Origin: a virus
Lineage: Duplodnaviria > Heunggongvirae > Uroviricota > Caudoviricetes
Strand: one strand, 5' to 3'
Virus record (IMG/VR): IMGVR_UViG_2740892423_000025
DNA: 4,635 bases
Positions within the stretch are counted from its first letter, which is position 1, and every line of letters starts with the position of its first letter. Below the pieces are notes generated by a model, which saw only the letters and a list, made by a program, of their open reading frames with translations, did not search any database and was not told the DNA's origin. Shown one piece after another: positions 411 to 4,462 of the stretch. Position numbers and translations under genes: made by a program.

Positions 411-449
411 GGAAATAAAAAGCCCGCGACTAATCCTGCGGGCTTTTTG
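411..449. terminator. bidirectional rho-independent terminator shared by the convergent 1-387 gene and the hok-like transcript
   Basis: Stem 421-427 (agcccgc) pairs with 438-444 (gcgggct), 10-nt loop. Flanked by an A-rich tract 411-420 (a U-tract when read on the - strand) and TTTTT at 445-449 on the + strand. Confidence 0.6.
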
Positions 450-468
450 CATTCAGGTTTGTGAGATG

Positions 469-483
469 GGGTGCCTTATCGGC
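469..483 (-). promoter_or_regulatory. fbi-like 3' element of the toxin mRNA, complementary to its predicted 5' end (810-823)
   Basis: Plus 469-483 gggtgccttatcggc is an inverted repeat of plus 810-823 gccgaaaggcaccc. In the - strand RNA, 5' GGGUGCCUUUCGGC can pair with GCCGAUAAGGCACCC in the 3' UTR: 14 bp with one bulged U, including 9 contiguous perfect bp. Confidence 0.4.
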
Positions 484-533
484 CTTACCCTGGCAACCGA
501 TTGACGGGGGATTGCTCCCCCGTCGCGGTTTCC

Positions 534-677
534 TTACGGTTTACACTGTAAGAACGCCGCAAACTCCGCTCCCCAGAAGCTCATCCGTATCTCGCAGAGC
601 GAACCCTGCAACATCCAGATGATGAGGATTGCCGTCACGCACAGTGTGGTGATGGCGATTAGCGATTTTTGCGACAT
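534..677 (-). CDS. hok: Hok/Gef-family type I toxin (small membrane protein), 47 aa
   Basis: Not in the ORF track (too short). Reverse-strand translation ATG 677-675 to TAA 536-534 gives MSQKSLIAITTLCVTAILIIWMLQGSLCEIRMSFWGAEFAAFLQCKP. Hydrophobic N-terminal segment, then SLCEIR and E-x-AAF motifs as in plasmid R1 Hok (…[25 protein letters not shown], from memory). SD AAGGAG about 8 nt upstream of the ATG. Confidence 0.8.
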   Translation of the reverse strand: MSQKSLIAITTLCVTAILIIWMLQGSLCEIRMSFWGAEFAAFLQCKP

Positions 678-780
678 AGCACTTGCTCCTTTTTCGGAGA
701 GGCGCTAACCTACGACTTGCGAAGGTTGTATGGCTAGGGCCTCGGGTTAACGTTAAAGTTGACTCGGGGCCTTTCCACAT
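541..780 (-). CDS. mok-like overlapping reading frame (79 codons) that fully overlaps the hok-like ORF in another frame
   Basis: ATG at 780-778 preceded by GAAGG. In-frame stop just upstream (793-795) fixes the maximal extent. Ends at TAA 543-541, 7 nt beyond the hok stop, the arrangement described for mok/hok. The protein sequence itself is not diagnostic. Confidence 0.4.
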   Translation of the reverse strand: MWKGPESTLTLTRGPSHTTFASRRLAPLRKRSKCYVAKIANRHHHTVRDGNPHHLDVAGFALRDTDELLGSGVCGVLTV

Positions 781-809
781 CCGGCCTTCGGTTTACCCTC
801 CAGCCATCA

Positions 810-823
810 GCCGAAAGGCACCC
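810..823 (-). promoter_or_regulatory. tac-like 5' element of the toxin mRNA (partner of 469-483)
   Basis: Lies exactly at the transcription start predicted independently from the promoter at 830-859. Complementary to 469-483 (see that feature). Confidence 0.4.
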
Positions 824-829
824 GCGCGA

Positions 830-859
830 ATTCTAGCCTGGTTTTTTCCCTTGTTTCAA
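830..859 (-). promoter_or_regulatory. candidate sigma70 promoter of the hok-like transcript
   Basis: On the - strand: -35 TTGAAA (859-854), 18-nt spacer, -10 TAGAAT (835-830). Predicted start near 823, giving a transcript of about 410 nt to the terminator at about 415, similar to the roughly 400-nt hok mRNA of R1. Confidence 0.35.
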
Positions 860-863
860 TCCG

Positions 864-891
864 TTGAGGCCTCTCAGCCTTCTGATATAAA
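864..891 (+). promoter_or_regulatory. candidate strong sigma70 promoter with extended -10, driving the 898-964 small RNA
   Basis: -35 TTGAGG (864-869), 16-nt spacer, TG at 883-884, -10 TATAAA (886-891). Predicted start at G898 or A899. Confidence 0.45.
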
Positions 892-897
892 ATTCCC

Positions 898-964
898 GAC
901 CGCAGACATTATTCAGTCACGCATTTGATACATGCTTCCGCCGGCGTTCGCGCCGGTTTTTTTT
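898..964 (+). ncRNA. candidate ~67-nt small RNA, divergent from the hok-like gene (possible Sok-like antitoxin RNA; relation to the toxin unproven)
   Basis: Bounded by the promoter at 864-891 and the terminator at 941-964. No ORF with an SD inside. Possible small stem 921-924/932-935. Size matches type I antitoxin RNAs (Sok is about 64 nt). It does not overlap the predicted toxin mRNA (about 415-823). Confidence 0.4.
941..964 (+). terminator. rho-independent terminator
   Basis: Perfect 6-bp GC stem ccggcg (941-946) / cgccgg (951-956), tetraloop ttcg, followed by eight T (957-964). Confidence 0.65.
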
Positions 965-3205: not shown

Positions 3206-3777
3206 GTTTTCCCTTCCTCTTTCACGCTCCCGATGCCAACAGCATCCAGACCAGAGCCAACGGCATCATTGATTTTTTTCCAGAACGAACTTTGCGTATT
3301 CATGCCTTTGTCTGGTGCCTGTTCGCTACCGTTCTGGGTCTGCTGTCTGGCGATGGTTTTCTGCGAACCGCTACGTGCAGACGCTTTCTCTGGCACGCTT
3401 AATTTTTCCCTGAGAGTAAAGGTGACCTGCCAGTGCATTTTTCCCTGTTGTTCCGTGGCATCAATGCCACCAGAAAATACCCCCTGTCGCATATTGATTG
3501 CCTTCGCGGTAGCGTTAGCAATGCGATATGTTTTTTTCGCGCCATTGCTTTCTGTTGCCTCCGCAAGCTGAAAAATACGGGTCAGAATAGCTTCATCGTT
3601 AAAATCAATAACCCCCGACACGCGCAGCTCTTTAGCCTTGCTTCCCTGCTGGGCGCTCGTGGTGCTGGTTGACTGTCCGGACATATCTTTGTCCGGTAGT
3701 TGCATGGTGGCGCTGACGGTGATGTTGCGCAGCAGAATGGCTTCCCCGTCAAGCGCAAGGACAATCATCTGGGTCAT
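3202..3777 (-). CDS. hypothetical protein, 191 aa (possible tail/baseplate accessory protein by context only)
   Basis: ATG 3777-3775 with SD AAGGGAAG about 7 nt upstream. Stop TGA 3204-3202 overlaps the next start. No family recognised. Confidence 0.65.
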   Translation of the reverse strand: MTQMIVLALDGEAILLRNITVSATMQLPDKDMSGQSTSTTSAQQGSKAKELRVSGVIDFNDEAILTRIFQLAEATESNGAKKTYRIANATAKAINMRQGVFSGGIDATEQQGKMHWQVTFTLREKLSVPEKASARSGSQKTIARQQTQNGSEQAPDKGMNTQSSFWKKINDAVGSGLDAVGIGSVKEEGKT

Positions 3778-4462
3778 GTAGTGCTTCCCTTAGTGATGAG
3801 AGATCATCGCCGACGAACAGCATCACAGCTGTAAAAACCCACTCAGGGTGTGGGATGTTTTTTTGTATCAGCACTGCGGCCTGGCTGAGGGCTCCCTTGT
3901 AGCAAAAGCGCCACACCGGGCAAAATTTTTGCCGGAGTGCGGCCTGCTGATCAGCGATTTCCTGTAGAGCTTTATCTCTCGCATTCATGAACTGATGCAG
4001 TGATGATGACAATGTTTCCGGTGATGTGGCGGCAGGAGTGGCTGCCTGTGCAATGGTTGCCGCCAGCGACATGCTGCGAGTGGTCTGTGTCGACAGCATT
4101 ATCGGTTCCGGAAGTGATGTTGCCGGTCTGGCGGGGATTTGCATTCTGCTGATGGCCAGTGAAAGCTGGCTGGAGATCATGCGGGACATTCGTCCCACCT
4201 CCGGCAACGGAAATGCGCCTGAAAATTGCCTGGCGAGTGATAAAAACTCGCCAGCAGAAGGAGCGCAAAATAACAGCGCCACAATGTCCTTTTCTGTGTT
4301 TTCTTTCAGATAGGGTAAAAGTGCAGATACAGCATTTTCGGGGCTGAGATAACGCCCCGATGGTTTGATGTTTCCGGTATTTTCTGACCATGGATGCAGG
4401 CAAACCACAGAGCATTTAATGTTCATGGCTGACGGGCGCAGAATTGCCTTTTCCCATTTCAT
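3749..4462 (-). CDS. hypothetical protein, 237 aa, with an S/T/A/P-rich central linker and Cys pairs (C-x3-C N-terminal; C-x5-C and C-x-C C-terminal)
   Basis: ATG 4462-4460 with SD GGAGAG. Start overlaps the stop of the upstream partial gene (ATGA). 3' end overlaps the 191-aa gene start by 29 nt. No family recognised. Confidence 0.6.
   Translation of the reverse strand: MKWEKAILRPSAMNIKCSVVCLHPWSENTGNIKPSGRYLSPENAVSALLPYLKENTEKDIVALLFCAPSAGEFLSLARQFSGAFPLPEVGRMSRMISSQLSLAISRMQIPARPATSLPEPIMLSTQTTRSMSLAATIAQAATPAATSPETLSSSLHQFMNARDKALQEIADQQAALRQKFCPVWRFCYKGALSQAAVLIQKNIPHPEWVFTAVMLFVGDDLSSLREALHDPDDCPCA

Follow-up and report, generated by a model that had tools for sequence, protein, structure and literature searches.

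The closest described system for the locus analyzed here is R1 hok/sok. In R1 hok, the full-length RNA is closed by pairing between its 5' element (tac) and its 3' element (fbi), the ucb element masks the Shine-Dalgarno sequence of the mok leader reading frame, and 3' processing lets the alternative tac/ucb pairing form (PMC9841398). This mechanism has been established since the 1990s (PMC9841398, PMC4147584), and hok is described as strictly dependent on mok being translated for its own translation in R1 (PMC4147584). An R1-type control sequence folded by us likewise forms its own tac/fbi helix, in which nt 1-7 pair with nt 390-396.

A comparable lock operates in the aapA1/IsoA1 system of Helicobacter pylori, whose toxin mRNA is, like some others of type I, inert when first transcribed, and where a long-range contact of the 5' end with the 3' end locks the primary toxin mRNA and 3' trimming yields a form that is both translatable and sensitive to the antisense RNA. 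The toxin and RNA sequences of aapA1/IsoA1 are unrelated to those of the present locus, and aapA1 has no leader reading frame; the likeness is functional, not ancestral.

Nearer to the present locus, the hokW/sokW genes of Sakai prophage 5 (Sp5) were shown experimentally to form a type I toxin-antitoxin pair (Takada et al. 2021, PMC8621323). Northern blots for hokW also revealed RNAs of lesser length, which may have arisen by truncation, and tac and fbi go unmentioned in that paper (PMC8621323). The orthology of HokW is uncertain, and it may be a different paralogue, because it comprises 51 aa (PMC8621323) versus 46 aa in the lom-adjacent homologue of the present gene. A survey of Hok diversity from 2025-26 deliberately left mok and mRNA structure unanalyzed (bioRxiv 10.1101/2025.08.07.668861).

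The locus lies in a stretch of 4,635 nucleotides, referred to as the window, for which an original prediction from the sequence had proposed a toxin mRNA whose first nucleotides pair with its 3' untranslated region (UTR) in a tac/fbi-like manner. We read the two segments as the tac and fbi elements of a hok-family type I toxin mRNA in a Mu-like Escherichia prophage, with a probability of roughly 0.85. The gene and its transcript are defined by the following features.

Positions 534 to 677, minus strand: hok open reading frame of 47 codons plus stop, encoding MSQKSLIAITTLCVTAILIIWMLQGSLCEIRMSFWGAEFAAFLQCKP
Positions 690-686, minus strand: Shine-Dalgarno sequence AGGAG of hok, within the conserved hairpin UAGCGC/GCGCUA of the consensus fold
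Positions 830 to 859, minus strand: predicted hok promoter, with -35 box TTGAAA (859-854), an 18-nt spacer and -10 box TAGAAT (835-830)
Positions 417 to 448, minus strand: intrinsic terminator hairpin with U-runs on both strands, common to hok and the convergent 128-aa open reading frame 1-387

That the toxin mRNA is of the hok type is supported by three matches. The product of reading frame 677-534 belongs to the Pfam family Hok/Gef (PF01848; E = 6.5e-7, with 29.3 bits where the cutoff is 22), a protein of 100% identity already bears the name Hok/Gef family protein [Escherichia coli], and the leader is recognized by the Rfam model RF01794 (sok / hok leader). RF01794 models the first 157 nt of hok mRNA, and its full length (model positions 1-157) aligns with window positions 823 to 664, starting exactly at 823. 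The score of 41.9 bits (E = 3.6e-7) lies below the gathering threshold of 59 bits, and by the model's standard the locus is a divergent member of RF01794. The window Hok, with 47 aa, carries a one-codon insertion relative to the 46 aa found in homologues.

A promoter scan found the hok promoter to be sigma-70-like with 10/12 matches, which places the predicted start at position 823, about 7 nt downstream of the -10 box. This start had been predicted from the promoter alone; it coincides with the first position of the RF01794 alignment, and the -10 box 7 nt upstream of it is conserved, as a -10-like hexamer is found at a constant distance from GGGTGCC in all aligned homologues. A 5' end at 823 is probable. 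At the other end, the primary hok transcript as modeled here probably stops at the terminator hairpin at 417-448; this terminator is not kept in other genomic contexts. Because of this strong hairpin at 448-417, the predicted primary transcript is about 409 nt long (823..415). A weak match of the Rfam Thr-leader model at 417-448 corresponds to the terminator itself and was treated as noise, as was a weak RsmY match at 3718-3859.

The long-range helix is formed by two elements at the ends of this transcript.

Positions 810 to 823, minus strand: tac element, transcript nt 1-14, GGGUGCCUUUCGGC; the 5' arm of both the long-range helix and the tac-stem
Positions 469 to 483, minus strand: fbi element, transcript nt 341-355, GCCGAUAAGGCACCC; the 3' arm, with the U at window position 478 bulged

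The claimed pairing of nt 1-14 with positions 483-469 over 14 bp with one bulge was recovered exactly, as 14 Watson-Crick pairs running from G1-C469 through U9-A477 and, beyond the bulged U478, from U10-A479 through C14-G483. A 15th pair, U15·G484 (window 809/484), is predicted at the inner end. The outer end of the helix is at +1, beyond which a C faces a C and pairing ceases. The duplex between the first 16 nt and the 119-nt 3' UTR was calculated at -28.0 kcal/mol (RNAduplex), a value that none of the other 16-mers within transcript nt 1-316 attains against the UTR. Among all 16-mers taken from the window, 0.9% did at least as well as the first 16 nt, a figure that was set aside because the set appears to be inflated by opposite-strand exact complements of the UTR.

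Folding of the 415-823 transcript placed the 5'/3' helix in both the minimum free energy (MFE) and the centroid structure, each of which it closes (409-nt RNA 823..415, z = -6.4). The pair probabilities range from 0.83 to 0.998, and a constrained refold in which fbi was forbidden costs 10.4 kcal/mol. The concern attached to the original prediction, that the elements might instead be locked in stable local structures, does not hold for the predicted transcript, as judged by the MFE, the centroid and the pair probabilities. The window fold depends on the assumed ends, since little energy separates the two conformations. For an RNA that begins at 823-826 and ends at the terminator, the probability of the tac/fbi helix is 0.99, dropping to 0.86, 0.50, and 0.08 when 10, 30, and 60 extra nucleotides are added at the 5' end, and to 0 if the RNA reads through the terminator to window position 389. 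In nine homologues, folding with native flanks of 60 and 80 nt left the helix in place, at probabilities of 0.41-1.0.

To compare the helix across the family, 28 distinct transcripts from E. coli, E. albertii, E. marmotae, Salmonella, Stx phages, and plasmids were aligned from +1 to two bases past fbi. The E. coli and Salmonella homologues share 76-92% nucleotide identity over the transcript. An alignment-based search of a species-representative genome set returned only 6 loci, and Salmonella copies were added via exact-protein look-ups. Three of those six loci lie in assemblies labeled Planococcaceae, Vagococcus, and Xanthomonas, which are probably contaminated.

RNAalifold, unprompted, closes the consensus of the 28 sequences with the tac/fbi helix, in an alignment whose trimming at tac and fbi favors a terminal helix. 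In total, 96.9% of the alignment cells in the helix are paired, versus 40-48% after the partner had been shifted by 1-3 columns, and none of 500 shuffles equaled the observed paired fraction or covariation score. The first nine nucleotides of tac are invariant across the 28 homologues, and the changes lie further inward. Escherichia-type sequences combine UUUCGGC with GCCGA(U)AA, and Salmonella-type sequences combine UUCGAC with GUCG(U)AA, which amounts to the paired loss of U10 and its A together with a change from G-C to A-U. At position 13 the window has G-C and Salmonella A-U, while numerous E. coli copies show the intermediate G·U. A further change, from C-G to U-A, is found in S. diarizonae, and one E. 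coli copy without C11 has a reshaped 3' element that keeps the pairing. When elements were combined across the clades, the helices were on average 1.4-5.4 kcal/mol weaker than the cognate ones.

The number of independent covariation events is nonetheless small, because most of the signal comes from a single split between the Escherichia type and the Salmonella type. Plain MAFFT misregisters the two types by one base at tac/fbi owing to the paired U10/A deletion. The double-change counts in columns 10-13 thus represent few events rather than 13, because the paired indel and the substitution are mixed in them.

In R1 the tac element has a second partner, and the corresponding elements are found in the leader of the present transcript.

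Positions 766 to 775, minus strand: ucb-like box, transcript nt 49-58, GAAAGGCCCC; pairs with tac when fbi is absent
Positions 738 to 744, minus strand: CGAGGCC, transcript nt 80-86, with a Shine-Dalgarno-like GAGG at nt 81-84; nearly invariant in the alignment

When fbi is removed, the 5' end refolds onto ucb and forms a local hairpin that spans nt 1-58. This tac-stem is the first hairpin of the Rfam consensus. In the alignment, 95% of its cells are paired, versus 27-67% in slid registers, and it contains two covarying pairs. The change of tac positions 10-11 from U,C to C,G is matched in both fbi and ucb. The CGAGGCC motif occupies the position of the R1 mok Shine-Dalgarno sequence, and in the closed form of the consensus, nt 53-59 (window 771-765, the 3' part of ucb plus nt 59) pair with the GAGG region. 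This ucb/GAGG helix is seen in the consensus fold and only partly visible in the window's own MFE structure; it is paired in 97.6% of cells, with a change from G-C to A-U in 9 sequences. When only the first 30-45 nt were considered, nt 4-15 were predicted thermodynamically to fold against nt 19-30, and a local 5' hairpin involving tac has been described for nascent hok RNA (PMC9841398). Since tac covaries with two mutually exclusive partners, the alignment has the pattern expected of the R1 hok switch. Gultyaev, Franch and Gerdes (1997) reportedly noted coupled covariations of such a kind in the hok family.

Two further features concern the control of the transcript by an antisense RNA and its processing at the 3' end.

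Positions 683 to 775, plus strand: predicted Sok-type antisense RNA gene, with -35 box TTGCTC (683-688) and -10 box TAACCT (706-711)
Positions 502 to 525, minus strand: GC-rich hairpin, transcript nt 299-322, GACGGGGGAGCAAUCCCCCGUC; 19 nt upstream of fbi

The predicted Sok RNA would start near position 718 and comprise a hairpin at 737-771 followed by UUU at 772-774, so that it would be complementary to hok mRNA nt ~49-106. Its predicted fold consists of a free 5' tail and a hairpin of -30 kcal/mol. The arrangement TTGCTC-17-TAACCT sits where the R1 sok promoter does and is nearly invariant in the alignment. A generic promoter scan did not call the Sok promoter; the Sok gene is predicted from the sequence. 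The GC-rich hairpin at 525-502 shows several compensatory pairs in the alignment. In the R1-type sequence the analogous hairpin ends at nt 361, which is the published truncated 3' end (PMC9841398). By this analogy, the hairpin at 525-502 is a candidate for the 3' end-protecting hairpin of a truncated active mRNA.

Taken together with what is known from R1, these features suggest the following course of events. In the predicted complete transcript, the two ends pair and thereby fold the RNA back on itself in a compact, closed form. By homology with R1, the closed full-length RNA would be stable and inert to both ribosomes and Sok, until slow 3' trimming back to the hairpin at 525-502 removes fbi. 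With fbi gone, the tac-stem would form and the leader would open to Sok or, when Sok is gone, to Hok synthesis. The pairing may thus keep the message translationally inert until 3' processing, as the original prediction had it on the analogy of hok mRNA.

The likeness to R1 hok/sok extends over most of the locus. Both systems have a Hok/Gef toxin, a long structured leader, the tac/fbi helix, a tac-stem with ucb, the ucb/GAGG pairing, and a GC-rich hairpin just upstream of fbi, as well as an antisense promoter over the hok Shine-Dalgarno region, which is predicted in the window. On the other hand, nucleotide similarity is low outside the motifs. The helix in the window has 14-15 pairs, whereas that of R1 is predicted to have 7 contiguous G-C-rich pairs and two more after a gap. 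The window leader is about 27 nt shorter than that of R1, with the hok AUG at nt 147 instead of nt 174. Unlike in R1, fbi is followed in the window by a strong intrinsic terminator, whose hairpin lies 20 nt beyond fbi and would be an obstacle to an exonuclease simply trimming from the 3' end. The most consequential difference is that R1 has a mok reading frame and the window subgroup has none after GAGG.

When the same test for reading frames was applied to the R1 control, mok was found, with its ATG at nt 116, 70 codons and a GAGG spacing of 7. In the 28 homologues, a start codon after the conserved GAGG was found in none (ATG, GTG, and TTG were tested), and in 17 of the 28 no ATG, GTG, or TTG reading frame reads into the hairpin of the hok ribosome-binding site (RBS). 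The leader between GAGG and the hok Shine-Dalgarno sequence varies by indels of 1-4 nt that do not keep the frame. In the window, an overlapping reading frame of 79 codons (780-541) begins at nt 44, in the ucb region, and is common only to one E. albertii copy. A mini-reading frame GUG-AUA-GGU-UAG (3 codons, ending at the base of the hok Shine-Dalgarno hairpin) was considered as a conserved leader reading frame and rejected, being found in some copies only and absent from the window. Judged by these sequences, the subgroup apparently has no conserved mok leader reading frame, a non-canonical start or a very short leader reading frame being possible. The subgroup thus has the RNA-switch features of R1 and lacks one of its defining features, mok. 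Because no mok is conserved, the step from the opening of the leader to the translation of hok cannot run exactly as in R1.

How Hok is controlled in such a subgroup can be read in more than one way. We tentatively propose, with less than even confidence, that the mok-less subgroup keeps the tac/fbi/ucb/GAGG switch and Sok and controls Hok without translational coupling. A possible route would be through a standby region, 30-90 nt upstream of the hairpin-enclosed hok RBS, to which the switch and Sok grant or deny ribosomes access. It is also conceivable, if on the whole unlikely, that the helix in this subgroup mainly stabilizes the mRNA and gates the access of Sok, with no block of translation through a leader reading frame, and that Hok translation is controlled otherwise, for example at a standby site or by RNase III cleavage. 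The failure of the test that finds mok in R1 to find it here speaks for such a role, as do the leader indels that keep no reading frame. The predicted accessibility of the hok Shine-Dalgarno sequence and AUG does not differ between the long and the short form, so that folding alone gives no translational mechanism, whereas the target of the Sok 5' tail opens in the short form, from a predicted accessibility of 0.36 to 0.53. For hokW/sokW, moreover, the authors consider it probable that repression involves some mechanism in addition to RNase III cleavage (PMC8621323). A role restricted to stability and Sok access is harder to reconcile with the conservation of GAGG and its partner, which covary as in R1, and leader translation from a non-canonical start, from a very short reading frame or, in the window, from the 79-codon frame may yet take the place of mok.

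A different reading takes the two segments as DNA, namely as terminal inverted repeats of a mobile hok cassette that are conserved for recombination. The distribution of the cassette gives this reading its appeal. In E. coli it has matches at about 2980 places, spread over 1750 of the 5426 complete genomes; further matches lie on 35 plasmids and in 198 phage records, and the contexts are as unrelated as the position after ogr in P2-like prophages, the position after lom in Stx phages, and IncI and IncF plasmids. The closest relatives, with 95% identity over the whole window (among them SC418 and CFIAFB20180511), belong to a Mu-like prophage, where the cassette lies near the com / DNA-methyltransferase end and adjoins tail and baseplate genes. 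Loci annotated as 'Hok/Gef family protein' or 'MokW-like host killing' in E. coli and Salmonella have the same layout of tac, ucb, GAGG, Shine-Dalgarno hairpin, and fbi; compared with these, the window copy is fully Watson-Crick at position 13, and the promoter and terminator around it are peculiar to it. The flanks differ among the contexts, and close similarity runs from near the promoter and +1 to just past ...GGCACCC (fbi), so that close homology stops just past the 3' repeat.

At the 5' end, however, the similarity continues for about 25-45 nt upstream of the repeat, into the promoter, and the 5' arm covaries with the internal ucb box as well, neither of which is what terminal repeats would lead one to expect. 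The equivalent arrangement in R1 is a proven RNA helix (PMC9841398). Furthermore, one-sided changes in tac/fbi gave 20 G·U cells against 2 A·C cells on the hok-sense strand, which shows that the pairing is held on the hok-sense RNA and is not merely a DNA inverted repeat. The tac/fbi helix is under RNA-level selection, and an explanation by DNA repeats is very improbable.

A chance match in a GC-rich untranslated region has next to no probability left, for although moderate matches are common (the mean for GC-rich 16-mers with shuffled UTRs is -18.5 kcal/mol), a single dinucleotide shuffle of the UTR out of 2000 reached -28 kcal/mol, and likewise 1 of 2000 for the 5' segment, and chance is refuted by the conservation of the helix and its compensation in the 28 homologues.

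The tac/fbi pairing in the window is the known hok/sok fold-back lock in one more member of the family. As end-pairing has long been established in hok mRNAs, the finding mainly confirms that the locus is a complete and probably functional hok/sok module, which might have a part in prophage maintenance, lysis timing, or phage defense. It also bears out the predicted start site. About one in three complete E. coli genomes carries the subgroup, and in none of the homologue records examined are the RNA elements annotated. The alignment adds a clean case of one element that covaries with two alternative partners. The apparent absence of mok is the sole point that could change the understanding of the family: if true, control of Hok without mok would represent a second regulatory solution within a model type I toxin-antitoxin family.

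In the closest full-length relative of the window (L034), the gene order runs from a RuvC-like ORF through a Com-family regulator and a DNA methyltransferase to the host gene flk.

L034 1915-2848: region of this relative that lies past the window's left end

This gene order places the hok cassette close to the end of a Mu-like prophage. Its location is similar in P2-like and lambdoid phages, at accessory-gene positions or near prophage ends.

The surroundings of the cassette contain three further predicted elements.

417-448: terminator hairpin, flanked on both sides by U-runs
864-893 (+): promoter-like site
940-957 (+): terminator-like hairpin

The terminator at 417-448 is probably common to hok on the minus strand and the 128-aa ORF that converges on it from the plus strand (1-387) and is annotated in a close relative as "RuvC family protein". 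Directly beyond it, nucleotides 389-414 could, in silico and assuming read-through, rival tac (the transcript's 5' end) for fbi, the 3' UTR element. On the other side of hok, the roughly 670 nt up to the 565-aa tail-region gene (830-1500), which include the promoter-like site and the terminator-like hairpin, are free of gene annotations in the nearest E. coli relatives and gave no match in an Rfam search. A weak RsmY-like Rfam match (18.5 bits, E = 0.24) in the tail-gene region, at 3718-3859 (+), spans the junction between two coding ORFs of the minus strand and was taken as chance.

Several Salmonella genomes (L026, L027, L030, and L031) carry tandem hok cassettes, with two complete copies about 500 nt apart.

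about 455-812 in these loci: first hok copy
about 945-1316 in these loci: second hok copy

Another locus, L032, looks like a recombinant whose 5' part stems from copy 1 and whose 3' part stems from copy 2; its cognate tac/fbi energy is the weakest observed (-21.2 kcal/mol). Near-identical E. coli-type cassettes also occur in assemblies labelled Planococcaceae MAG, Vagococcus sp., and Xanthomonas pisi (L015, L016, and L018), which most likely represent enterobacterial contigs present as contaminants; the leader of L015 includes a masked run of N.

In records of Stx and Shigella phages, the 46-aa Hok ORF adjacent to lom (L005, L013) is labelled "MokW-like host killing", whereas HokW of Sp5, which has been studied by experiment, is reported to have 51 aa. 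Two paralogues may be conflated under this label, or it may misname hok as mok. A conserved mok leader ORF was not found in this Hok subgroup when ORFs starting with ATG, GTG, or TTG were sought in the alignment of 28 distinct homologous transcripts (loci L001-L032); the same test recovered mok in the R1-type control sequence. With these start codons, no ORF runs into the hok ribosome-binding hairpin in 17 of the 28 homologues, and none of the 28 has an ORF start downstream of the conserved GAGG motif. The window itself has a 79-codon ORF overlapping hok at 541-780 (-), which among the homologues recurs only in one E. albertii copy.

Within hok, the consensus fold contains a helix between GUCGCAAA (nt 149-156), in the first codons, and UUUGCGGC (nt 261-268), close to the 3' end of the ORF.

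668-675 and 556-563 (-): hok start-region helix, from the consensus fold

This pairing is nearly invariant, and through it the start region of hok could be masked in the full-length and the shortened mRNA alike.
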